Positions 26,426-47,186 of a stretch of DNA of 64,000 nt are shown here, piece after piece. This DNA is from an uncultured delta proteobacterium (lineage in GTDB: Bacteria; Myxococcota_A; Polyangia; Polyangiales; B10-G4). Where the stretch lies: contig CAVSGI010000010.1 of NCBI GenBank assembly GCA_963727445.1, forward strand, positions 1,120,001 to 1,184,000, read 5' to 3'. The notes beneath the pieces are model-generated. The model was not told the DNA's origin. It saw only the letters and a program-made list of their open reading frames with translations, and made no database searches. A program made the translations under genes and the position numbers. Each line of letters opens with the position of its first letter. Within the stretch, counting starts at the first letter, position 1.

Positions 26426-28417
26426 ATGGCAGGTACCGAGCACGATCCTCCGGGCCCCGAGCCGACCCTCATCGTCGCGGAACCGAAGACCATCGCCGGC
26501 AAGTACAAGCTCGGGCGCATGCTCGGCGAAGGCGGGATGGGCTCCGTCTACGAAGCGGAGCACCTCGGCCTCGCCAAGCGGGTAGCCATCAAGCTCCTCG
26601 CCGAGAACTACGCGGAGGACGAGGTCTTCGTGAAGCGCTTTCGCCGTGAAGCGAAGGCGATGGCCGCGGTGGCACACGAGAACATCGTCCAGGTCACCGA
26701 CAACGGCGAGGACGACGAGGGGATCCCCTTCATCGTCATGGAGCTCCTCGATGGGGAGTCTCTGGCTTCGGTCATTCGCCGCGAGCGCGTCATCCCGGCG
26801 GCGCAGGCGGCCGACATCGCGGGCCAGGTGCTGGCGGGGCTCGCCGCGCTGCACAAGAAGGGGATCGTTCATCGCGATCTGAAGCCCGCCAACGTCTTCA
26901 TCGCGCGCACCGAGGATGGTCAGACGCGCGCGAAGATCCTGGACTTCGGGATCTCGAAGTTCGCCGCGGACCTCACGAACATGAACGTCACCGCCGAGGG
27001 CGCGGTGATCGGCACCCCGGCGTACATGTCCCCCGAGCAAGTCAAGGGCCGGGCCGACGTCGACGAGCAGACCGACATCTACGCGGTCGGGGTGATGCTC
27101 TACCGAATGGTGACCGGGCGCCTCCCCTTCGCCGGCAAGAAGCCGCGCCAGATCTACGACAAGATCCTGCGCGGCGCGGCGACGCATCCGCAGGAACACC
27201 GCGGTGAGATCAGCGACGAGCTCTGCGAGGTCATCCTCAAGGCGATGAGCCGGCGCAAGAAGGATCGCTACCGGTCGGCGCAGGAGTTCTTCGAAGCGCT
27301 CAAGGAAGCGGTCCCGGACATGGAGGCGACCGGCCCCATGCCCATCATCACCCGCTCTTCGCAGCATTCACTCTCCGCCATCGAGACCGCGCCCACGCTC
27401 CGATCGGGTCGCGGCGCCTCCTCCACCGCCACCACGGGCAAGCTCGCGCCCCGCCCCAGCGGGCGCAGCGCCATCGTTCTGGGGCTGGTGGCGGTGGGGC
27501 TGCTCGGCGTGGGGATCGCGCTCATCTCGAGCGCCGAGCCGAGCGACGGCGGGCAGACGACGCAGGCCGGGGACGCCAACACCGAGAGCGCGGACGCCAG
27601 CGGCACCACGACCGCCCCGGTGTTCGAGGGGACGCCGATCCGCTACGGCGTCACCCATTACGGCGACGAAGACGCCATCCACGCCACCCACGACCCGCTC
27701 TGCGCCTATCTACAGACCCGCCTCGAGCGACCGGTCGAGCTGGAGATCGTCAACGACCACGAGCTCTCAGCGGCCCTCGGCGACGGCGGGCTCACCTTCG
27801 CCGCCCTCTCCCCCAAGCGCTACGTCGAGCAGAAGAACGAGCACCCGCAGCTGCGCGTGGTCGCCATGGCTGCCAACCCCGGCGGCACGTCGTACGCTGG
27901 GCAGCTCCTCGTGCGCTCCGACGAGGACGCTCGCGCGATCGAGGATCTGCGCGGCAAGAAGATCTGCTTTCCCAGCGCCGACTCCACGAGCGGTTACCTC
28001 TATCCGCTGGCGCTCCTGCGTGAAGCGGGCATCACCAACATCCACGACTTCTTCCACGGCGTCGTCTACTACGACGGCGATCACGCGACCACGCTGCGCG
28101 CGCTCCATGCGGGCGACTGCGACGTGGCCGCGGTGGCCCAGAACACGGTGCAGGAAGCGGGCTTCGCGCCGCAGCAGTTCCGGCCCATCGCCACCACCGC
28201 CCCCATCCCCTACGACGCCTACGTGATCGCCCCGGGCGTCGAGCCCGAGCTCGCCCATCAGATCACCGACGCCCTGCTCTCCCTGTCGCCCGGGAGCCGG
28301 GAGGCCACCACCATCTTCCCGGAGGGGAGCCAGCTCACCGGATTCGTCGAAGCCAGCGACGCCGACTACGACGAGGCCCGCGAGATCATTGGGGACGTGG
28401 ACGCCGCGGAGAACTGA
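26426..28417 (+). CDS. Transmembrane Ser/Thr kinase with a PhnD-like phosphate/phosphonate-binding domain
   Basis: GEGGMG, VAIK, HRDLKPAN, DFG, GTPAYMSPE; TM helix; DLRGKKICF...STSGYLYP...IPYD. Confidence 0.88.
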   Translation: MAGTEHDPPGPEPTLIVAEPKTIAGKYKLGRMLGEGGMGSVYEAEHLGLAKRVAIKLLAENYAEDEVFVKRFRREAKAMAAVAHENIVQVTDNGEDDEGIPFIVMELLDGESLASVIRRERVIPAAQAADIAGQVLAGLAALHKKGIVHRDLKPANVFIARTEDGQTRAKILDFGISKFAADLTNMNVTAEGAVIGTPAYMSPEQVKGRADVDEQTDIYAVGVMLYRMVTGRLPFAGKKPRQIYDKILRGAATHPQEHRGEISDELCEVILKAMSRRKKDRYRSAQEFFEALKEAVPDMEATGPMPIITRSSQHSLSAIETAPTLRSGRGASSTATTGKLAPRPSGRSAIVLGLVAVGLLGVGIALISSAEPSDGGQTTQAGDANTESADASGTTTAPVFEGTPIRYGVTHYGDEDAIHATHDPLCAYLQTRLERPVELEIVNDHELSAALGDGGLTFAALSPKRYVEQKNEHPQLRVVAMAANPGGTSYAGQLLVRSDEDARAIEDLRGKKICFPSADSTSGYLYPLALLREAGITNIHDFFHGVVYYDGDHATTLRALHAGDCDVAAVAQNTVQEAGFAPQQFRPIATTAPIPYDAYVIAPGVEPELAHQITDALLSLSPGSREATTIFPEGSQLTGFVEASDADYDEAREIIGDVDAAEN

Positions 28418-33346: not shown

Positions 33347-33372
33347 AGCGTAACTCAGGTCAGCGTTACGCT
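33347..33372. promoter_or_regulatory. Inverted repeat AGCGTAAC-N10-GTTACGCT, candidate operator
   Basis: Perfect 8-bp arms immediately before the GGAGGT RBS of the first operon gene. Confidence 0.6.
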
Positions 33373-33383
33373 TTGGAGGTCCG

Positions 33384-35585
33384 ATGGCGGGTTGGCGCTG
33401 GCGAGCGTTCGGACAGGCAGTCGTGAGCCTCGCGCTCCTCTGGGGAGGATGCGCAGAGGGCGACGCGGGCCCAGACGCGGGAAGGCCCGACGTCTCGCAC
33501 CTGGACGGCGGGGCAATCTACGCAGCTCAGTGCGCGTCGTGTCATGGCGAGGTGGGTGAAGGCGGCCTCGGGCCGTCGCTCGTCGATTGGTCGCGCGGCG
33601 AAGACGCGCTCATCGACATCATCGACGTCCGGATGCCTCAGACCAATCCGGCGGCTTGCGACGAAGCCTGCGCCACCGCGGTCGGACGCTACGTCATCGC
33701 GACCTTCACCAGCGAAGCGCTCGCATGCGACGAGATCACACCAGGCCCACGGCAGCTTCGACTGCTCACCCGCCGCGAGTATCGGAACACGATCTACGAC
33801 CTCTTCCCGACGCTGGCGCCGGGCGCGGAGGCCGCGGCGGATCCGGGCGCCACCGAGCCCTGCGGCCTGACGCACTTCCGCTACGACCCCGGCGGAAGGT
33901 CGCTCTCGAGCGTGAGCGTCGCCGGCAGCTTCAACGCGTGGTCTCCCACGGCCTGGCCGATGAGCCTCGACGCGAGCGGCGTCTGGGTCCTCGACCAGAC
34001 GCTGGCCGAGGGCACCCACCAGTACAAGCTGGTGCTCGACGGAAGCGAGTGGGTGACGGATCCCTCGAACTCGGATCACGCCGCGGATGGCTTTGGCGGG
34101 CAGAACTCGGTCATCGTCGTCTCCTGCAGCAGCACCAGCCCGGCGCCCTCGACGACCGCGGGTCTCACCGACCCAGCCGACGGCTTCCCGGTGGAGACGC
34201 GGCCCGACGGATTCCCCTTCGACGACCACGCCGAGTCGGGGCGTGTCACCCCGGTTCACGCGGAGGAGCAGCTCCGCGCGGCCGCGCGCGTGGCGACCGC
34301 CCTGGGCGACGGCATCGCCGACCTCGCCCCCTGCGACCTCGCCGAGGGCGCGAGCTGCGCCGAAGCCTTCGCCCGCGACTTCGGCGCGCGCGTCTTCCGC
34401 CGCCCCCTCGAGGACCGCGAGGTCACGCGCTACGCGGCGCTCGTCACCGGCGCCGCCACGCCGGCCGAAGGCCTCGGGATTCCCCTTCGCGCCATGCTGG
34501 TCTCGCCCGCCTTCCTCTATCGCAGCGAGGTGGGGGAGGCGCAGGACGACGGCACCTTCGCCCTCACCGGCTGGGAGATCGCCAGCGCCCTGTCCTACGG
34601 CATCTGGGGGACCATGCCCGACGAGGCGCTCTTCGATGCCGCGGCCGACGGAAGCCTCGAAACTGACGAAGGCATCACCCGCGAGGCCCAGCGTCTCCTC
34701 GCCGACCCGCGCGCCGGCGCGCTCCTCGGCGAGGTCGGCATCCAGTGGCTCGGCGTGGAGGCCATCGCCGACAAGCCGAAGTCGAACGTGCTCTTCCCCG
34801 ACTTCGACGATGCGCTCCGCGCGTCGATGCTCGAAGAGACGCGCCGCTTCGTCGCGCACGTGGTGCTCGAAGGAAGCGGCCGCTTCGACGAGCTCCTCAC
34901 CGCCGACTACACCTTCGCCGACGCGCGCCTCGCCCGTCACTACGGCATCGGCGGCGTGGACGGCGACACCCCCACGCTGACGCCCACCGCGCCCGAGCGC
35001 GCTGCCGGCGTCCTCGGCCACGCGTCGGTCCTCGCCCGCTACGCGCACTCGGACCAGAGCTCGCCCATCCAGCGCGGCGTCTTCGTCCGCCGCCGCATCC
35101 TCTGCCAGGACTTCGCGCCGCCGCCGCCCAACGCGGGCGGCGTCCCCGACGTCGACCCGGAGGCCACCACCCGCGAGCGCTTCGCGCAGCACACCGCGGA
35201 CACGGTCTGCCGCGGCTGTCATCAGTACATCGACGAGGTGGGCTTCGGCTTCGAGAGCTTCGACGCGGTCGGCGCGTTCCGCACCACGGATCAAGGCCGC
35301 CCGGTCGACAGCCACGGCGACATGGGCGACGTCGAAGGCATGGGAACGAACACCTCGGCGCCGTTCTCGACCCTGCCCGAGCTCGGCCAGATCCTCGCCG
35401 AGAGCGACGCCGCCGAGGCCTGCTTCGTGCGGCAGTACACGCGCTACGCGCGCGGCATGCGCGAGCGGGCCGAGGACCGATGCGCTCTCCTCGACCTGGC
35501 GGAGCGCTTCAGCGCGAGCGGCGGCGACATTCGCACGCTCATCGTCGACACCTACCTCTCCCCAGCCTTTCGGAGGAGAAAGTGA
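33384..35585 (+). CDS. DUF1592/DUF1588/DUF1595/DUF1585-family lipoprotein with cytochrome c domain and inserted CBM48-like module
   Basis: CASCH; RLLTRREYRNTIYDL; AGSFNAW...HQYKLVLDGSEWVTDP; SPAFLYRSE; SSPIQRG; CRGCH; GFGFESFDAVG. Confidence 0.88.
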   Translation: MAGWRWRAFGQAVVSLALLWGGCAEGDAGPDAGRPDVSHLDGGAIYAAQCASCHGEVGEGGLGPSLVDWSRGEDALIDIIDVRMPQTNPAACDEACATAVGRYVIATFTSEALACDEITPGPRQLRLLTRREYRNTIYDLFPTLAPGAEAAADPGATEPCGLTHFRYDPGGRSLSSVSVAGSFNAWSPTAWPMSLDASGVWVLDQTLAEGTHQYKLVLDGSEWVTDPSNSDHAADGFGGQNSVIVVSCSSTSPAPSTTAGLTDPADGFPVETRPDGFPFDDHAESGRVTPVHAEEQLRAAARVATALGDGIADLAPCDLAEGASCAEAFARDFGARVFRRPLEDREVTRYAALVTGAATPAEGLGIPLRAMLVSPAFLYRSEVGEAQDDGTFALTGWEIASALSYGIWGTMPDEALFDAAADGSLETDEGITREAQRLLADPRAGALLGEVGIQWLGVEAIADKPKSNVLFPDFDDALRASMLEETRRFVAHVVLEGSGRFDELLTADYTFADARLARHYGIGGVDGDTPTLTPTAPERAAGVLGHASVLARYAHSDQSSPIQRGVFVRRRILCQDFAPPPPNAGGVPDVDPEATTRERFAQHTADTVCRGCHQYIDEVGFGFESFDAVGAFRTTDQGRPVDSHGDMGDVEGMGTNTSAPFSTLPELGQILAESDAAEACFVRQYTRYARGMRERAEDRCALLDLAERFSASGGDIRTLIVDTYLSPAFRRRK

Positions 35586-36951
35586 TGTGGAGTAAGCAGA
35601 CCCGACGCCGCTTTCTGCGCGGCATGCTGGGAGCCGCGGCGGCGGCGCCTCTGGGCCTCGCCATCGGCCACGCCGCGCGCGCCCTCGATCCTTCGGGCCG
35701 CGCCCAACGCGTCATCTTCTTCTACTTCCCCGACGGTGTCGGCGGCGTCTCCGAGAGCGGCGAGGCCTCTCTCTTCGACGCGCGGCTCGAGGGGGGCGCG
35801 GTGCAGCTGAGCGAGATCCTCGAGCCCCTCGGCGATCGAAAGCGCCACTGCGTGTTCCTCAACGGGCTGTCGATGGGCTCGGTGGACGAGGGCTCGCATC
35901 CCGGCGGCGCCAAGAAGCTCCTCACGGGCACCGACGGCGGCTACGGCATGAGCATCGACCAGTTCCTCGCCGGCAGCGCGGGCGCCGACGCGCCGCATCG
36001 CCATCTCTATCTGGGCGCGATGGCGAACGCCGACGGCGCGAGCGGCGACAAGCACATCAGCTATCCCTCGGCGGGCTTCACCACGCCGCCCGAGGACGAC
36101 CCCCGCGAAGCCTTCCGGCGCGTCTTCGGCGCGGCGCTCCCGCGCGCCCGGCCCCGGCATGCCCGACACCGGCGCGGCGGCCACGCGCAGCATCATCGAC
36201 ACCGCCATCGCCGACATCACGGACCTGCGCGTGCGCCTCGGCGACCTCGAGCGGAGCCGCCTCGACCTGCATCTGGACGCGCTGCGCGAGGTGGAGGGTC
36301 GCATCGATGCGCTGCCGCCGCCGATGGCCGCGAGCTGCGACGAGCCGGCCGGTCCCGACGACTTCGGCGCGCGCCTCTACGACCCCGAGCTCTTCCCCGA
36401 CATCCTGCGCGCCCAGATGGATCTCATGGTCCAGGCGATGGCGTGCGGCCTGACCCGCGTCGGCGTGATCGCAGGCCTCGCACCACACCAGCGAGCTCAT
36501 CATGAGCCGCTTCCCCGGCACGGCGATGTACGACCCGGGCTTCGACATGCGCAGCCATCAGGCCTCGCACTACGGCGCGCGCCACGACCGCTCGAATCGG
36601 CTCTTCGTCGACTTCCTCGCCCAGCGCCGCTGGTTCGTGCAGCAGCTCGGCTACCTGATCAATCAGCTGGCCGCGCGGCCCGAGGGCGCCTCCGGGGAGA
36701 CCATGCTAGACCACTCTCTCGTCCTGGTGAGCAGCGAGGTCTCGGACGGGAACACCCACAGTCATCACGACATGCCCTTCGTCCTCGCGGGCCACGCCGG
36801 TGGCTCGCTCAGCGGCGAACGGGTGCTCGAGTTCGGAGGCCGCCGCCACGGCGACCTCCTCGCCTCGATCGCGCACGCGATGGGGCAGCCGGTGATGGGC
36901 TACGGCACGGACAGCCACGGGCCCCTCGACGGTCTCCTCTCCGGAAGTTGA
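35585..36951 (+). CDS. DUF1552-family protein, Tat-exported (frameshifts near 36141 and 36471)
   Basis: TRRRFLRG Tat motif, FFYFPDG, SIDQFLA, RLDLHLDALREVE, MACGLTRV, MLDHSLV, GNTHSHHDMP, spread over three frames. Confidence 0.85.
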
Positions 36952-36955
36952 AGAC

Positions 36956-37846
36956 ATGGCAGAATCGGACGTCGTCGATGCCCTGGTAGAGCTGGGCTTC
37001 ACCATCAACGAGAGCCGCGCTTACGCCGCGCTCCTCGTCGCGGGACCTTCGACCGGCTACGAGGTGCACCAGCGCGCAGGCGTCCCGCGCTCCGCCGTCT
37101 ACGGCTCGCTCCGGCGCCTCGTCTCCCACGGGGCGGCGCGCTCGGTGGCGGGCTCACCCGAGCGCTTCGTCGCCGTCGCGCCCGAAGAGCTGATGGTGCT
37201 GCTTCGCAAGCGCCACGACGCACAGCAAGCCGGCCTCGAGCGGGCCATCTCCACCCTCGACGTCCAGCCCGACGTGCCCGAGGCCTTCACCGTCGAAGGC
37301 TACGAGCGCATCATGGAAGAGGTGGAGCGGCTGGTGCGCACCGCGGAGGATCAGCTGGTGATCAGCGGTTGGCCGCGCGAGCTCGCGCGCCTCGAGTCGG
37401 AGCTCGCCGCCGCGAGCCGGCGTGGCGTGTACACCGTCCTGTTCTCCCACGCGTCGCTGCCACGCGACCTCGCGGGCATCCATTTCAGCTACGGCCGAAA
37501 CGAGGCGGACCTCGAGGACTTCTGGGAACACCGCCTGACCATCGTCGCCGACGACAAGCGGACGCTGATCGGCGCGGTCGAGGGGCGAGCCAGCGACGCC
37601 GCCGTGCTCAGCGAGACCCAGGCCATCGCCGAGGTGGCGACCAGCCAGATCGCGCTGGACATCACGCTGCTCGCGCAGCGCCACGGTCACGACGTCGAGA
37701 AGGTGATGGCGCGCATCCTGGGCGACCGGGTCGGGCGCCTCGACACCCTGGAAGGCAAGGGCGAAGGCGCGGTGGTCGGCAAGCGGCGAAGCGCGCCGAA
37801 GAAGCAGGGCGGCAAGGCCGCCGCCACCGAGGAGGTGGCGTCGTGA
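36956..37846 (+). CDS. TrmB-family transcriptional regulator
   Basis: LGFTINESRAYAALL...TGYEV...GVPRSAVYGSLRRL winged HTH plus C-terminal effector domain. Confidence 0.88.
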   Translation: MAESDVVDALVELGFTINESRAYAALLVAGPSTGYEVHQRAGVPRSAVYGSLRRLVSHGAARSVAGSPERFVAVAPEELMVLLRKRHDAQQAGLERAISTLDVQPDVPEAFTVEGYERIMEEVERLVRTAEDQLVISGWPRELARLESELAAASRRGVYTVLFSHASLPRDLAGIHFSYGRNEADLEDFWEHRLTIVADDKRTLIGAVEGRASDAAVLSETQAIAEVATSQIALDITLLAQRHGHDVEKVMARILGDRVGRLDTLEGKGEGAVVGKRRSAPKKQGGKAAATEEVAS

Positions 37847-39930
37847 TCCGTTTCTTCCTCGCGTCGTCGCTCGTGCTCGCGGCGTTCGGCTGCGCCGAGC
37901 CCGGCACCTCGGCGCCGGACTCGGGTTATCCGGATCGCGCCGACGGCGGACCGATCCCCGGCTACGGCCAGCCGTGCAGCAGCGGCTATGGCAGCGGCCT
38001 CAGCTGCACCGACAGCGGCGTCACCACCATGCCCGACACCGGGCCCCCGCCCCCGCCGTGCAACCAGCACACCTTCACGTACGTCGACGCGATGGCGTCC
38101 ACCGTCTGGGTCACCGGCAGCTTCACCGACTGGGCGACCACGCCGGCAGAGGGCGCCATCGAGCTGATGGACGACGGCACCGGCACCTGGTCCGTCACCT
38201 TCCTGGTCGAGCCGCCGGGTGAGCATCAGTACAAGTTCATCATCGACGGCACGACGTGGATCCCCGATCCCGAAAACCCCGACAGCGTCGACGACGGCTT
38301 CGGCAGCACCAACAGCGTCATCACCCTGTGCTTCACCAGCTGCGGCAACGCCGACGACTACGACTGGCGCGACGCCGTGATGTATTTCGCGATGGTCGAC
38401 CGCTTCAGCGATTCGGACGGGCGGAGCGATCCGGTGGCCGGCGTGAGCGGGGGCGACGCGCGGACCGGGCCCAGCGGGCAATACGCGGGCGGCGATCTGC
38501 GCGGCGTGATGAACCAGCTCGAGTACCTCGCCAACCTCGGCGTGACCGCGCTCTGGCTCTCGGCTCCTTACGAAAACCGCAACTCCGCGGGCGCGGCGAT
38601 CGACCCCTTCTCGGATTCACACACCTACTCGGCCTATCACGGCTATTGGCCCTCGCCGCCGGCCGTCGACTACTCGGCGGCGGGCGGCCCGTCGCCGCGG
38701 CCTCGGGTCGAGTCGCGCATCGGCACCGAGTCCGATCTGCGCGCGCTGGTCGACGAGGCGCACGCCACCATGGGCGCCGACGGCCACGGCATGAAGGTGC
38801 TCTTCGACTACGTGATGAACCACGTGGACATCGAGAGCGGGCTCTACGGCGCGCATCCCGACTGGTTCGCCCGGCGCGACGGGCGCTTCCCCCTCTGCGG
38901 TCCCGAAAACCTCTGGGACGACCCCTACTGGGGCATCCGCTGCGCCTTCACCGACTACCTGCCGGCCTTCGATTTCGACAACGACGCAGCACGCGGCTGG
39001 TCGGTGAGCGACGCCCTGTGGTGGGCCGAGGAGTATGGCATCGACGGCTACCGCCTCGACGCGATCAAGCAGGTGCCCGAGTCGTGGCTCATGGACCTTC
39101 GAGCGCGGCTGAACACCGAGATCACCAGCCCCGAGGGCGACCGCTTCTATCTGGTCGGCGAGACCTTCAGCTACGACGATCCGGGACTGCTCCGGCGCTA
39201 TGTCGACCCCTCCACCATGCTCGACGGCCAGTTCGACTTCCCCTTCAAGGCGCGCGCCTGCGAGGCGCTCTTCACGCCTGGCGGACGCCTCGACACCCTC
39301 TCGGGGTGGATGGATGACAACGATCGCTTCTACGGACCGGACGCGATCATGAGCACCTGGATCGGCAACCACGACATCCCGCGCGCCATCCACTTCGCGA
39401 GCCGGGAGATCACCGACTGCCGCCAGGGCAGCAATCCCGGCAACGGCTGGGACTGGCGCCCGGCGCAGCCCACCGACGCCGCCGCTTACGAGCGGCTCTC
39501 CCTCGCCTTCGCCGTGATGTTCACCAACCCTGGCATCCCCCTCATCTACTACGGCGACGAGATCGGCCTGGCCGGCGGGGGCGATCCGGACAATCGCCGG
39601 ATGATGAACTGGAACGACTCTTCGCTGAGCCCGGCCCAGCTCACGCTCCGCGAGCGGGTGGGCGAGCTCGCGCGGGCGCGCGCGGTCAACAAGGTCCTGT
39701 CGCGCGGCCGCCGCATGACCATCTCCGCCGACCAGGACACCTGGGTGTACCGGATGACCGGCTGCGGCGCGGACATCCCGGACGCGGTGGTCGCGATCAA
39801 CCGCGCCGACTCGGGCCGCTCGGTCGACATCCCTGCCGGCTCCTGGGTGAACCTCATCACCGACGCGCCCGTCGCCGGGGGCCGGGTCGACCTCGGCCCC
39901 AGAAGCTACCTCCTGCTCGGACAACCCTGA
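37843..39930 (+). CDS. GH13 alpha-amylase-family lipoprotein with N-terminal CBM48-like domain
   Basis: Lipobox AFGC, DRF, YHGYW, DYVMNH, GYRLDA, VGE, GNHD, YYGDE. Confidence 0.9.
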   Translation: MIRFFLASSLVLAAFGCAEPGTSAPDSGYPDRADGGPIPGYGQPCSSGYGSGLSCTDSGVTTMPDTGPPPPPCNQHTFTYVDAMASTVWVTGSFTDWATTPAEGAIELMDDGTGTWSVTFLVEPPGEHQYKFIIDGTTWIPDPENPDSVDDGFGSTNSVITLCFTSCGNADDYDWRDAVMYFAMVDRFSDSDGRSDPVAGVSGGDARTGPSGQYAGGDLRGVMNQLEYLANLGVTALWLSAPYENRNSAGAAIDPFSDSHTYSAYHGYWPSPPAVDYSAAGGPSPRPRVESRIGTESDLRALVDEAHATMGADGHGMKVLFDYVMNHVDIESGLYGAHPDWFARRDGRFPLCGPENLWDDPYWGIRCAFTDYLPAFDFDNDAARGWSVSDALWWAEEYGIDGYRLDAIKQVPESWLMDLRARLNTEITSPEGDRFYLVGETFSYDDPGLLRRYVDPSTMLDGQFDFPFKARACEALFTPGGRLDTLSGWMDDNDRFYGPDAIMSTWIGNHDIPRAIHFASREITDCRQGSNPGNGWDWRPAQPTDAAAYERLSLAFAVMFTNPGIPLIYYGDEIGLAGGGDPDNRRMMNWNDSSLSPAQLTLRERVGELARARAVNKVLSRGRRMTISADQDTWVYRMTGCGADIPDAVVAINRADSGRSVDIPAGSWVNLITDAPVAGGRVDLGPRSYLLLGQP

Positions 39931-39937
39931 GGCGTTC

Positions 39938-41638
39938 GTGAAGCAGTACCCGCGAGCGCTCTTCGGCCTGCTCCTGCTCGTGGGGTGTGGGACCGAGAGC
40001 GAGCCGCGGCCGGCCGTCGCCACACACGTGGACGATTGGCGCGACGAGGTCATCTACGAGGTGCTCACCGACCGCTTCGAGAACGGCGACACCGGCAACG
40101 ACGATGTCGACGGCGTGTCCATCGTCCCCGGCGATCTGTCTCGGCATCAGGGCGGCGACTGGGCGGGCATGCGCGCGCGCCTTCCCTATCTCGAGCATCT
40201 GGGGATCACCACGCTCTGGATCTCGCCCATCGTGAAGAACCTGCCGCGGACCGAGACCGAGGACGGCTATCACGGCTACTGGGCGTCGGACTTCACGGAG
40301 ATCAACGACCGCTTCGGCAGCGTGGAGGACCTGCGCGGGCTCGTCGACGACGCCCACGACCGCGGCATGAAGGTGATCATCGACGTGGTGATGAATCACG
40401 CCGGGCGCGTGTTCTCCTACGACCTCGACCGCGACGGAGTGTCGGACCCGGACGAGTGGGAGCCGCCCTACTCGCCCACGCCCATCGACGCGCCTCTCGT
40501 GTGGGTCACCGATCCGCCGCGGATGTGGACGCCGAGCGCCCTGCTCTCGAGCGACCCCTTCGCGGACCCGGACATCTTCACCCTGGACGAATCGCACTTC
40601 CACCGCCGCGGCGCCAACAATTGGGAGAGCGTCGACGAGGTGCTCTTCGGGGACTTTCCGACGGGCCTCAGGGATCTGGCGACCGAGCGCGACGACATCC
40701 AGAGCGCGTTGGTCGAGACCTACGCGCAGTGGGTGCGGATCACCGACGTCGACGGTTTCCGCCTCGACGCCGTGCCGCACATCGCCCCGAGCGAATGGGC
40801 GATCCTGGCGAGCCGCCTCCGGGAGCGCCTGGCCGCGATGGGAAAACACGACTTCCTGCTCCTCGGCGAGGTCTTCAGCCCCGACGCAGAGGAGCTCTCA
40901 CGCTATGTGGAGCCGGGGATGCTCGACACGGTCTTCGACTTCACCTTCCGCGAGTACGTCATCGACCAGGTGATCCTCGCCGGGTTGCCCCCCACCTACG
41001 CGCGCCCCGCCTTCGACCCCCTCGAAAACGCGCTCCCGCGAACGCCACAGCCCATGGGCATCGGGCTCACGCCGCACCAGGCCCGCGTCGCTTTTGCCGA
41101 CAATCACGACACCCAGCGGATCCGGAACATCCTCGACGATCCCTACGCGGTGGAGATGGCCATGACCGCGGTCTTCACCATCGACGGCATCCCATCGGTC
41201 TACTACGGCACCGAGCAGGGCATGAGCGGCGGCGGCCACCACGCCTCCCGCGAGGTGCTCTGGGAGACGGGCTTCGACGAAACGCATCCCACCTACGAGC
41301 TCATCGCGCGCCTCGCGGCGCTCAGGCGCGCACATCCCGCGCTTCGCTATGGCGCGCTCTACGTCCGCTTCTTGAGCCCGAGCGGGGGTCTGTCGACCGA
41401 AGACGACGCCTCCCTCTTCGCCTGGGAGCGCGCCCACGGAGATGACCGCACCCTCAGCGTCTTCAACGCGCACGCCTACAAGGAGAGCGAAGCGACGATC
41501 CCGACGGGCTTCGCGCCGGGCACTGTTCTGAGGGACGAGATCTACGACCTGATCCCACCCGTGACGGTGAACGGCGACGGCAGCGTCCAGGTGCGGCTGC
41601 CGCCGCGCAGCGCGGTCCTGCTCGCTGTGAGCTCGTGA
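39938..41638 (+). CDS. GH13 alpha-amylase-family lipoprotein
   Basis: Lipobox LVGC, TDRF, YHGYW, DVVMNH, GFRLDA, LGEVF, DNHD, YYGTEQ. Confidence 0.9.
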   Translation: MKQYPRALFGLLLLVGCGTESEPRPAVATHVDDWRDEVIYEVLTDRFENGDTGNDDVDGVSIVPGDLSRHQGGDWAGMRARLPYLEHLGITTLWISPIVKNLPRTETEDGYHGYWASDFTEINDRFGSVEDLRGLVDDAHDRGMKVIIDVVMNHAGRVFSYDLDRDGVSDPDEWEPPYSPTPIDAPLVWVTDPPRMWTPSALLSSDPFADPDIFTLDESHFHRRGANNWESVDEVLFGDFPTGLRDLATERDDIQSALVETYAQWVRITDVDGFRLDAVPHIAPSEWAILASRLRERLAAMGKHDFLLLGEVFSPDAEELSRYVEPGMLDTVFDFTFREYVIDQVILAGLPPTYARPAFDPLENALPRTPQPMGIGLTPHQARVAFADNHDTQRIRNILDDPYAVEMAMTAVFTIDGIPSVYYGTEQGMSGGGHHASREVLWETGFDETHPTYELIARLAALRRAHPALRYGALYVRFLSPSGGLSTEDDASLFAWERAHGDDRTLSVFNAHAYKESEATIPTGFAPGTVLRDEIYDLIPPVTVNGDGSVQVRLPPRSAVLLAVSS

Positions 41639-41716
41639 CGCGCGCCGCGCGCCCCACGAGAGGGCGACGCGCGCGATCACCTTGACCCGCGGGTTTCTCC
41701 GTGAGGTCATCGCACC

Positions 41717-43449: not shown

Positions 43450-46400
43450 TCAGCCGCGAAGCGCCCGGCATCTCGCCTCGTCGAGGGGCTGCCCCGCGAG
43501 GCGATAGGCTTCGGCGGCGGCGCCGAAGCGCTCGGCGGCCGTGGGGGGATCCGCACCGGCGAGCGCCAGGTGGCCGCGAACCTCCTCGACCGCTGCGCGC
43601 CACGCGGGCAGGGGCACGATCACCTCGGCGAGCTGTTCGGCGGTCGCGGCGTGCCGGGTCGCGCGCTCGAGGTCACCCGCGCGGGCCGCGCCGATCGCCG
43701 CCGGCACGACAAGTGTGATCCGGCACGCCGGGCACGACTCGAGGGGACCGCGCACCGCGTGCTCCGCCTCTTCCACCCTGGCCAGTGAGTCGGCGGGGTC
43801 GTCCGCGACGGCGATCCGACATCCGTAGATCCGATCGAGGAGGTGGTGACAGAGATAGGAGTCGCGCGCCACGGTGAGCGCGTGGTCCAACAGAGCCGCC
43901 GCCTCCTCGCGATGGCCGCGGTGGAGTGCGACCTCGGCCCGCCGCTGGAGCGAGAGGGCCTGCCCAGCGGTCGCGCCGAGACGGCCGTGAAGCCGCGCCC
44001 CCTCGTCCAGGCTGCGCTGCGCTTCGTCGAGCGATCCGGCGAGGAGCTCCGCTTCTCCGCGGAGCGTCACCGCGAAGGCGAGTCCCCGCGCGGCACCGAT
44101 GCGCTCCGCCTCCTCCGCCAGGGACGTCGCGAAGGCGATGACCTCGTCGTAGGGGCGCGCTCCGTAGAGCATCCGCTCGGTGGCGCAGAGGTGAGCGTCG
44201 AAGACGCGCGTCGCGAGATCGGGAAGCTCCCGCGTCGCCGCCAGCTCGGCGCGCAGCTGCGCCGGCAGGTCCCCGCGTGCGTGGGCGGCGAGCGACTGCG
44301 CCCACGACGCCTCCAGGATCGCCCCCGAGTCCCCCGTCTCGAGCGCCAGGCGGCGGGCTTCGGACGCGGCGTCGTGAGCTTCGGTGGGATCGCAGTAGCC
44401 CACGGCAGCGGCACCGCTCAGGGTGAGCGCTCTCGAGATCAGCGCCGCAGTGGTGGAAGGAGCGGCCTGGGCGAGCGTCTCGAGGGCGCCCCCGGGATCT
44501 CCCGACTTGAGCTGGGCGAGCGCCTGGCGTGTGCGAACGTCCTGAGCCTCCGCTTCGGAGAGCCGCGTCGCGGCGACCGACATAGGCTGCCAGTGCGCGG
44601 CTGTCTCCCAGCGCGTCGAGGACGTCGGCGCGAAGGACGAGCGCCTCCGGGTGATCGGGCGCATGCTCGAGCACGGAGTCCAACTGGCGCAACGCATCGG
44701 CGAGCGCGCCGAGCCGAATGGCCCGCCGCGCCGCCGCCAAGAGCCACGGAACCGCCTCGGAAGGACGGGCCCCCGAAAGCCAGTGGTGCGCGATCCGGAC
44801 CGGCGAGCCGCCGGCACCTGCCAGTCGCCGAGCCGCGTCCCGATGAATCGCGATGCGGCGATGCGGCGGCACGCGCTCCACGAGCGCCTCCCGCACCAGG
44901 GAGTGGCGAAATCGGTACCGCGCGTTCGCGACGACCAGGACTCCCCGGCCGAGCGCCGCGTCGAGCAGGGCGAAGGCTTCCGATTCCGAGAGGCCGGTCA
45001 AGGCCACGATCTCCATCGTGTCCAGGTCGTCGCCCGCCAGAGCGATGCGTTCGAGCATCGCCAGAGATCCCGTGTCGAGGTCCACGAAGTCGGCGCGGAT
45101 CGCATCCCAGAGGGTCGGGGTGATCGCGATCGTCCCGTCGCGCACGTGACATCGCGCGAGCTCGCGAGCAAAAAGCGGATGACCCTCCGCCAGCGCGACG
45201 ATTCGGTCGGTGACCATGGGCGGGGGTCGCGTTTCCGCCTGTGCAGCGACAATCGCGATCACGTCCTCGGGGGACAGGGGACCCAATGCGATCTCGACGA
45301 GCCCACGAGCGCGCTCGAGCCGCGCGAGGCCGGAGACGAGCCCCGGCGACAGCTGCCCCTCGCGATGAGCGAGCACCACCAGGAACGCGTCGCTCGCGTG
45401 CGCACCGACCTCGAGCAAGACCTCCGCGCTGGCTTCGTCGGCGAGATGGGTGTCGTCGACGATCAAGACGAGCCTCCCTGCACCGACGGACGCCCGCAAC
45501 AGCTGCATGAAAGCGCCGGAGACACGATGACGCGTCAGGGCGCCGTCGATGGAGGAAGCCGGGCCCGCCAGCGGCGCGAGCTGCGCGAGCGTCGCGCGCG
45601 CACCCGGGGACAGCGACGCGAGCCGCCCTGGATCTTCGCGGACCAGTCGGTCGATCACCGCGCCGAGCGTCCCGTACGCGTCCGGCTGCGAGGCGCTCCG
45701 CACGGTGACGGCGCGAAAACCGGCCTCCTCGGCCATCGCGGACACTTGGCGACACAGGAGCGACTTTCCGATGCCGGCCGGCCCCCGAATCGCGAGCACG
45801 CCCACCTCACGGGGCAGGTCGGCGCGCAGCAGCGCCGCGCAACGAGCCAGCTCCACCTGCCGCCCGACGAAGGCCGGCTGGACGCGATCGATCCCTTCGA
45901 GGCATCGCTGGTACAGCACCTCGGTCTCGGGACTGGGCGCAATTCCGAGCTCCGCTGCGAGAACCGTCCGCAACCGGCCATACCAACGGATGGCGCGTGG
46001 GAGATCGTTTGCGTCCAGCGCGTCCTCGATCATCGCACGGTAGGGCGCCTCGTCCGTGGGCTCGAGCTCGACGAGGCGCTCCCAACGACCGCTGAGGCGT
46101 AGGAGCTCCGCGTAGCGGTCGCGCAGGTTCCGGCGGGTGGGCTCGGTCCAGTCCTCGTAGAGCGATTCGGGAAGGAGCTCGCCGCGATAGAGGGAAGCCG
46201 CCTCGAGCGCGAGCGCCGGGTCCTCGCGACCGAGCGCCTCCTCCGCCCTCGCCTCGAAGCGCTCGACGTCGACGTCGATGGCGCCCACGTTCAGCGCGAC
46301 CATCCCGCCGCGAAGCGCGATCGCGTCCTTGTCGCCCAGCGCTCGTCGCGCGTGGTGGGCCGCCTTGCGGAGGTTGGCAAAGCCGGCCTTGGCGCCGAGG

Positions 46401-46573
46401 TGCGGCCAGAGACTCTCCACCGCCTGGTCCCGGGTGAGGCGGTGAGAAGGCGAAAGTGCCAGGAGCTGAACGAGCTCGGCCGAGCGCCGGCTGGGCCATC
46501 GCTCGTTGGCCACTTCTTCCCCGTCCACAAAGACTCGAAAGCCCCCCAGGAGCTGGATGCGAAGAGACTCCAC
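43450..46573 (-). CDS. SARP/BTAD + AAA ATPase + TPR transcriptional regulator (frameshift near 44578)
   Basis: IQLLGGF, LYRGELLP, Walker A GPAGIGKS, LIVDDTHLAD, YRFRHSLVRE; continues in ORF 43450-44817. Confidence 0.82.
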
Positions 46574-46634
46574 GCTCCGAGGATACGCCCCCGACCGTCG
46601 ACCTTCGCGTCGGGTTCGGAGACACTCTGCGGGC

Positions 46635-47186
46635 ATGGACAGTGTCATCGACGCGCTGATCGGCGGAGGAAATCCGAGCCTCGAAGACGCGACGCGGGTC
46701 TTCGACTCGCTCGAGCCCGTAGCGCTCGAATTCATCTTGGGCAGATGGCGCGGACGAGAGATCGCCACCGGCCATCGCATGGAAGGCATCCTCGAGGCCT
46801 CCGGCTGGTACGGCAAGCTCTTCCTGAGCGAAGAAGAGGTGCACCCGCTGCTCTACTACACGCGCGACAGGAAGGGTCTCTTCGCCTGCGATCCGAAGCA
46901 CATTCGCATGGACGTCGACGTCGCGAAGATCAAGCCGCTCGGCAGCCTCGCGGGGATCGGCATGAAGCTGCTTCGAACCACGCGCAGCAAGGCGCGCCTC
47001 AGGATGGTCGAGCATCGCGGCCGGGTGACGGCGACGATGATCTACGACGAAAAGCCCATCTTCGACTTCTTCCGGCGGATCGACGACCATCGCGTGTTGG
47101 GTTGGATGGACCTCAAGGGCGATGTGCGCCCCTACTTCTTCATGCTCGAACGCGACGACGAGAGCGATCTTTCGCTCGAGCTCTGA
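46635..47186 (+). CDS. GXWXG/DUF4334 protein
   Basis: FDSLEPV, GRWRG, GWYGK, ARLRMVEHRG..TATMIYD. Confidence 0.85.
   Translation: MDSVIDALIGGGNPSLEDATRVFDSLEPVALEFILGRWRGREIATGHRMEGILEASGWYGKLFLSEEEVHPLLYYTRDRKGLFACDPKHIRMDVDVAKIKPLGSLAGIGMKLLRTTRSKARLRMVEHRGRVTATMIYDEKPIFDFFRRIDDHRVLGWMDLKGDVRPYFFMLERDDESDLSLEL

Follow-up and report, generated by a model that had tools for sequence, protein, structure and literature searches.

Genes uniting PSCyt3 with PSD2-5, known as 'Group III planctomycete-specific cytochrome' genes, adjoin DUF1552 genes, and carbohydrate-binding modules (CBMs) have already been noted on some Group III members, with carbohydrate-linked redox roles suggested (He et al. 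2017, PMC5615132). Cbp2D of Cellvibrio japonicus is laid out as [CBM2][X158][FN3][X183][DUF1587][X132], proteins of the form [CBM26]n[X183][X132] are listed with it, and X183 is a demonstrated electron-transfer cytochrome (Branch et al., PMC8981238). Growth on insoluble cellulose requires the cbp2D gene; for cbp26A, upregulation is reported on starch as well as on mannans, xyloglucan and cellulose (PMC12542752). In archaea, the TrmB-family repressor TrmBL1/Tgr governs a regulon of maltodextrin uptake, amylases and glycolysis through a palindrome downstream of the promoter (PMC4158304). PSCyt3/DUF1552 pairs number in the dozens in Planctomycetes, Verrucomicrobia and myxobacteria, and their reaction is not known; how the related Cbp2D comes to be essential for the use of cellulose is unexplained. 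Here we analyze one such pair, genes A and B, which heads a cluster of five genes in a 64,000-nucleotide stretch (the window) of an uncultured delta proteobacterium assigned to the Polyangia (assembly GCA_963727445.1, contig CAVSGI010000010.1, positions 1,120,001 to 1,184,000).

We favor, as a tentative reading that falls somewhat short of an even chance, the view that the products of genes A and B make up a redox enzyme, exported and anchored by lipid, that is directed at alpha-glucans, within a TrmB-repressed starch/glycogen regulon of Polyangia. The predicted targeting to alpha-glucans and the co-regulation of the pair are well supported. The reading rests on the invariance of the CBM48 residues of gene A, the adjacency of genes A and B, and an operator that tracks TrmB and sugar genes. 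The five genes and the relevant parts of gene A are located in the window as follows:

33384-35585, + strand: gene A, a 733-residue lipoprotein of the DUF1592 type with two CxxCH motifs, ordered as cytochrome c (X183-like), PSD3 split by CBM48, PSD5, PSD4, PSCyt3 and PSD2 (Pfam, AlphaFold model)
33504-33695, + strand: N-terminal class I cytochrome c domain of gene A, with C50xxC53H54 and M84 (profile and fold search)
33861-34127, + strand: CBM48/AMPK-type module of gene A, inside PSD3 (Pfam PF16561, E 1.7e-8)
35208-35222, + strand: core haem motif C609xxC612H613 in PSCyt3 of gene A
35585-36951, + strand: gene B, a DUF1552 protein with predicted export by the twin-arginine (Tat) route, spread over three frames by two +1 shifts (Pfam, translations)
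36956-37846, + strand: gene for a TrmB-family regulator (PF01978 E 8.8e-18, partial PF11495)
37843-39930, + strand: gene D, a CBM48-GH13 lipoprotein with catalytic D/E/D motifs (Pfam, alignment to solved amylases)
39938-41638, + strand: gene E, a GH13 lipoprotein with catalytic D/E/D motifs (Pfam, alignment to solved amylases)

The original prediction, made by a model from the letters of the window, had described five same-strand genes with tight junctions, and this layout holds: TGATG at 35583-35587 joins genes A and B, a gap of 4 nucleotides (nt) separates gene B from the TrmB gene, GTGA at 37843-37846 joins the latter to gene D, and 7 nt lie between genes D and E. Pfam upheld the family calls (cytochrome c with PSD3/5/4/PSCyt3/PSD2, DUF1552, TrmB and two glycoside hydrolases of family GH13), with PSCyt3, PSD4 and PSD2/3/5 united in gene A and all matches above cut-off. 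Alignment with solved amylases found the catalytic D/E/D residues of both GH13 proteins intact, and the cluster contains no transporter gene, as had been stated. A lipobox cysteine is seen in the translations of genes A, D and E; that of gene A, Cys23, is kept in at least 90% of 95 homologues. The twin-arginine leader attributed to gene B is visible in its translation, but the gene is not the single open frame that had been assumed.

The link to alpha-glucans centers on a domain that the original prediction overlooked. An AMPK1_CBM (CBM48-type) domain occupies residues 164-247 of gene A, interrupting PSD3 and flanked by the conserved C160 and C248; a second domain of this type in the cluster was found by Pfam in gene D. 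Alignment to the CBM of AMP-activated protein kinase (AMPK) equates W186, K215 and W223 of the insert with W100, K126 and W133 of AMPK beta1, residues in which mutations reduce or eliminate the binding of glycogen (PMC6274970). Together with N241 they are invariant in 95/95 homologues, the profile set of gene A (95 out of 107 proteins with PSD4 in a list of 120, with 12 shorter ones excluded), and in 66 of 67 related loci, which are distinct loci left from 70 after removal of three duplicates. The insert has both the fold and the equivalents of the three binding residues, and is predicted to bind alpha-glucans. Of the 401 genomes examined in the class, 48, the source genome among them, carry one copy of the subfamily bearing it, a lower bound because only eight candidates were scored per genome. 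None of the remaining 24 DUF1592 genes of the source genome has a CBM insert, a second CxxCH or the operator described below, and the alpha-glucan association that had been proposed is thus specific to this pair. AMPK-type CBMs act as glycogen sensors (PMC6274970) and kinases lie near several orthologues, so the pair might also be a glucan sensor in which binding at the CBM changes the state of the haem or metal and is passed on to a signaling system; we regard this as highly improbable, given that the related loci hold no conserved transmembrane or signaling partner beside the pair and that kinases are abundant everywhere in these genomes.

Co-regulation is indicated by an inverted repeat that had likewise escaped notice:

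33350-33369, no strand: candidate operator palindrome, ending 14 nt before the gene A start and just ahead of a GGAGG ribosome-binding site

The repeat, of consensus GTAACTCA-N4-TGAGTTAC, seeded a search of relatives, from which a matrix was built on six relatives' sites, its own site being excluded. Under this matrix the site ranks first in the 9.47 Mb genome with 24.4 bits, and ten column-permuted matrices peaked at 16-21, never reaching 24. Scoring a fixed 1300-nt region upstream of the CBM in 52 genomes with a threshold of at least 18, we found the operator upstream of gene A in 12 of 13 TrmB-bearing genomes versus 2 of 39 TrmB-lacking ones, counts that are not independent, the genomes being akin, and that include five training sites among the 12, the other seven being held out. 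Scores are bimodal (at least 19.8 or at most 10.2), and the contrast is also seen within each of three families. In the thirteenth TrmB-bearing genome the site precedes a LamB gene heading a LamB-GH13-A-B array. The two TrmB-lacking exceptions come from fragmented assemblies, and TrmB is present in their congeners. In four loci (L026:12845-12891, L034, L092 and L095) gene A is preceded by two operators in tandem, 22-27 nt apart.

The operator also reaches beyond gene A. Its exact pattern yields 35 sites in five TrmB-bearing genomes (control 3) and none in five TrmB-lacking genomes; the match of the pattern within the window is there by construction and is not counted. Eighteen of the 31 sites that do not serve gene A precede alpha-glucan or glycolytic genes (GH13, GH15, GH31, GH57/LamB, CBM21 proteins, phosphorylase, phosphofructokinase, aldolase and pyruvate dehydrogenase, with one of the 18 below the Pfam cut-off), and a LamB gene is preceded by an operator in three relatives. 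The TrmB protein has a clear DNA-binding domain (PF01978, 64.4 bits); its effector part matches only positions 3-59 of the 233 of PF11495, and the protein falls below all NCBIfam TrmB cut-offs. We infer that the palindrome is a TrmB site in repressor position. Operators in four further loci (L168, L158, L153 and L171) stand before uncharacterized exported proteins, one with DUF6209, which are candidate new alpha-glucan proteins. In the source genome, a CBM-GH13 lipoprotein gene on another contig (G000:C21:398616-400991) has the second-best operator match just upstream, at 18.6 bits, a score that lies within the permuted-matrix range, so that this site rests on its position only.

The redox component of the favored reading is suggested by two c-type haem motifs, by an electron-transfer cytochrome of the X183 type and by the departure of gene B from canonical hydrolases. 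A profile of the 95 homologues places TtX183A/B and CjX183 of Cbp2D as the closest solved relatives of the gene A cytochrome (8q1v, E 9e-16; 8q1w, 3.5e-12; 7b21, 2.5e-8), and the AlphaFold model of the protein (predicted local distance difference test, pLDDT, 91.8) agrees, aligning with 8q1v over 72 residues at Z 10.7 and a root-mean-square deviation (rmsd) of 2.6. The N-terminal cytochrome domain is present in 58 of 67 related loci. The core motif C609xxC612H613 is invariant in 95/95 homologues and seen in 65 of 67 loci, the two misses being a contig end and a read-through open reading frame mis-scored by the scoring window. Orthologues in L117, L120, L129-L131 and L133-L135 retain the CBM48 insert and the DUF1552 partner and have no N-terminal cytochrome c. 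A fold search with the whole gene A model matched only the CBM and cytochrome domains; the DUF1592 core was not folded alone, and for this reason we make no claim of a new fold. Judged by architecture, X132 of Cbp2D would correspond to the PSD5/4/PSCyt3/2 (DUF1592) core, and Cbp26A would be the CBM26 entry among the listed proteins. The statement that DUF1592/DUF1552 proteins have no assigned function was strictly right, but Cbp2D, built on the same chassis, has a knockout phenotype on cellulose (PMC12542752).

Searching the gene B sequence against solved structures gave nothing significant, and an ESM Atlas search gave no usable match. A model of an intact orthologue (L026, pLDDT 84.3) adopts the core fold of the alkaline-phosphatase/sulfatase superfamily (Z 17.1, rmsd 3.2 and 236 residues aligned to 5udy); 68 chains reached Z of at least 8, and the top 50 all belong to this superfamily. 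Four histidines (H101, H318, H322 and H383) are conserved across gene B orthologues and paralogues. Motif spacing and a partial profile alignment of the C-terminal part, used here in place of superposition, put H101 ten residues ahead of the G of LTG, the spacing of a Ser/Thr/Cys nucleophile, a place taken by Thr or Ser in the genome's sulfatase-like proteins; among aligned proteins 31 of 32 have a histidine at this spacing, as do 26 of 26 paralogues. CSEV replaces ADHG, and the histidine of the DHG motif is absent. The histidine at the nucleophile spacing and the substitution of ADHG speak against a hydrolase of canonical type and suggest that gene B may hold a metal site rich in histidine. 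The modeled fold would suit a different function, in which the pair would remove starch/glycogen phosphate ahead of the amylases by hydrolysis, as a glucan phosphatase or phosphodiesterase comparable in function to SEX4 of plants or to laforin: CBM48 is also used by SEX4, and in sulfatase-like proteins the residues aligned with E376 and H383 are the DHG Asp and a later His (profile probability 72%, C-terminal part only). The near-universal histidine at the nucleophile spacing, a first-strand Asp that is often Asn, His or Gln in paralogues, and two haems that hydrolysis leaves unexplained make this function quite improbable.

The two +1 shifts of gene B lie at about 36141-36158 and at 36471. 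An initial frameshift test with references from relatives found 1 of 47 genes shifted, namely gene B; larger paralogue-based tests found shifts at 29 of 479 and then 59 of 877 loci, the latter with 75 shifts, 54 of them +1, and with two or more shifts at 15 loci. Among the shifted loci are what we take, from their N-termini, to be paralogues of EF-Tu, GroEL and RecA. None of the 69 related loci that extend to gene B shows a break in its frame, and at 36471 one related contig is a base shorter. A search of sequencing runs found none with reads of this strain and none of RNA; four DNA runs with small shares were listed, and none of them covered the first frameshift informatively. The frequency of shifts in this assembly and the intact copies of relatives make assembly error the likelier cause, and the shifts in gene B are probably such errors. 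Genuine decay of gene B in this strain to a pseudogene, a dead copy of a functional family, would fit the two frameshifts and the fact that LamB and a GH13 gene on contig C2 are shifted too; with shifts so common and mostly +1, the presumed EF-Tu, GroEL and RecA paralogues among them, no in-frame stops within the three segments and a related contig one base shorter at 36471, we hold this to be improbable. Elsewhere in the window, a transcriptional activator/ATPase-like gene (43450-46816, minus strand) appears to be split over several frames, probably by another assembly frameshift.

The original prediction had named loss of synteny with GH13 and TrmB as grounds for its refutation, and the neighborhood survey did not find this synteny conserved. 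Of 67 related loci, one has GH13 beside the pair, one has TrmB and none has both, figures that are lower bounds because flanks vary in length (from less than 100 nt to 10 kb) and GH57 was absent from the queries. The GH13-flanked locus (L027) carries MalG, LamB, GH13, A and B on one strand, and the TrmB-flanked one (L092) is in divergent orientation. GH31 lies beside the pair in 2 of 67 loci and GH15 in 1 of 67, and a MalE-F query against the related loci returned no matches. About 3 kb downstream of the pair in L117 (2199-4655) is a gene whose N-terminus appears, from its motif, to resemble GH57/DUF3536. The TrmB-D-E block is retained in one relative without the pair, and D-E in two more. Gene B directly follows gene A in 69 of 70 related loci, the remaining one ending at a contig edge. 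The five-gene operon is best explained as a local assembly of regulon members. The next gene (41717, an EGF-repeat lipoprotein) is probably separate from it; two G+C-rich hairpins without a U tract lie 3' of gene E (41635-41710), and a sigma-70 promoter scan returned no match.

The same survey bears on sugar uptake. Genes for a LamB-like porin and for an ABC transporter (MalK/MalE-F/MalG) lie on another contig of the source genome (C2), so that the analogy to SusC/D drawn in the original prediction loses its premise. The maltoporin gene there is followed by GH13, both frameshifted in the assembly and with no operator upstream (G000:C2:43014-46314, L090), and the transporter's binding protein is fused to its first permease in a MalE-MalF fusion of 726 residues (G000:C2:85239-89271, L091). 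A module for capture and uptake in the manner of SusC/D, standing in for a transporter, could draw on the absence of a transporter from the cluster and on gene A being a lipoprotein with a glucan-binding module, for which SusD/E-like surface capture is conceivable. Gene A is helical, though, gene B has an alpha/beta enzyme fold and neither is a barrel, in L027 the operon of the pair also includes LamB and MalG, and LamB carries the operator in three relatives; such a module is accordingly the least probable of the functions considered, its uptake part being largely refuted. Among the capture, oxidation and uptake roles first proposed for the pair, oxidation is the best supported.

More serious is the possibility that the pair performs the same envelope task as its 24 paralogues, such as electron supply or peroxide or metal handling, with the CBM48 and operator only placing and timing it and the glucan not being its chemical substrate. 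The genome has 25 DUF1592 genes, 24 of them with an adjacent DUF1552 gene and in varied contexts, the four histidines are common to all paralogues, and the orthologues' neighbors are mostly unrelated genes. Set against this, the CBM sits within a core domain and keeps its binding residues in all orthologues, and gene B orthologues form a tight subfamily, 48-63% identical to L026 (one 87% sister apart) versus 26-39% for paralogues. We consider this shared task unlikely.

Several observations count against the alpha-glucan redox enzyme that we favor, in addition to the kinship of the genomes surveyed. The N-terminal haem is missing in 9 of 67 orthologues, no solved relative of the DUF1592 core was found by profile or fold searches, and the alkaline-phosphatase fold taken alone points to hydrolysis. 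TtX183 domains did not reduce their cognate lytic polysaccharide monooxygenase (PMC10916295). On the regulatory side, 13 of the 31 sites away from gene A precede unrelated or unknown genes (one a phosphoenolpyruvate-synthase regulator and 12 other, unknown or intragenic), the operator is absent before LamB, MalK, two GH15 and GH31 of this genome, and 37 of 52 genomes retain the A-B pair while lacking both this TrmB and the operator. The favored reading draws further support from the Cbp2D layout, needed on insoluble cellulose, and from the existence of [CBM26]n-X183-X132 versions.

Under this redox-enzyme reading, TrmB would bind the operator and be released by a maltodextrin-derived sugar. 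The gene B protein would be exported folded with its His-rich metal site and dock on the DUF1592 core, while the CBM48 would hold glycogen or maltodextrin chains whose ends the GH13 lipoproteins may supply. Substrate would be oxidized at the gene B metal site or the core haem, electrons passing to the optional N-terminal X183 haem and then onward, and uptake would proceed by LamB and the ABC transporter. A bolder extension, which is possible though rather doubtful, is that DUF1592/DUF1552 pairs are new two-subunit oxidoreductases, combining haem with a four-histidine metal site on a repurposed alkaline-phosphatase fold; within a bacterial regulon resembling that of TrmBL1, the CBM48 subfamily would oxidize starch/glycogen or open it oxidatively, and proteins of the Cbp2D type would be orphaned halves missing their catalytic partner DUF1552. 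The available parts of PMC8981238, PMC10916295 and PMC12542752 make no mention of such a partner. CJA_2617 and CJA_2614 are co-induced with cbp2D and, like the neighbor of cbp26A, would be candidates for it.

The pair, its adjacency of the A-B type and the CBM link are already in print (PMC5615132). The literature surveyed, with subscription journals and some supplements outside its scope, gave no account of the CBM48-inserted subfamily, of the operator and myxobacterial TrmB regulon, or of a DUF1552 partner for Cbp2D-type proteins. A single-copy subfamily that combines a glycogen-binding module with an operator also found before amylase genes points to an inexpensive, soluble substrate and to a condition for induction, and thereby makes the chemistry of the family directly testable. 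The TrmB regulon of Polyangia can also serve to mark sugar catabolism among bacteria regarded mainly as predators. Elsewhere in the window, at 26426-28417, a Ser/Thr kinase is fused to a phosphonate-binding (PF12974) periplasmic domain.

Compared with described systems, the locus shares its domains and DUF1552 adjacency with the Group III cytochrome genes. It differs from them in that the CBM lies inside PSD3, in forming a single-copy myxobacterial subfamily with a defined operator, and in the type of its CBM, CBM48/AMPK not being among those in the Fig. 8 legend of PMC5615132. Cbp2D, TERTU_2913/3803 of T. turnerae and the [CBM26]n[X183][X132] proteins, whose CBM26 is starch-binding, resemble gene A in that X183 is followed by DUF1587 and by a CxxCH domain at the C-terminus, and in their possession of a module that binds polysaccharide, whereas gene A is a lipoprotein, has its CBM inserted rather than appended, and is without X158 and FN3. 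The likeness to SusC/SusD is confined to a lipoprotein with predicted glucan-binding capacity beside amylases: there is no TonB-dependent beta-barrel and no SusD fold, and a separate LamB/ABC uptake route is present. The regulon logic parallels that of archaeal TrmBL1/Tgr in joining a TrmB-family protein, a palindrome and sugar genes, here in a bacterial host, with GTAACTCA-N4-TGAGTTAC in place of TATCAC-N5-GTGATA and with a shorter protein, below NCBIfam cut-offs, as the putative binder.

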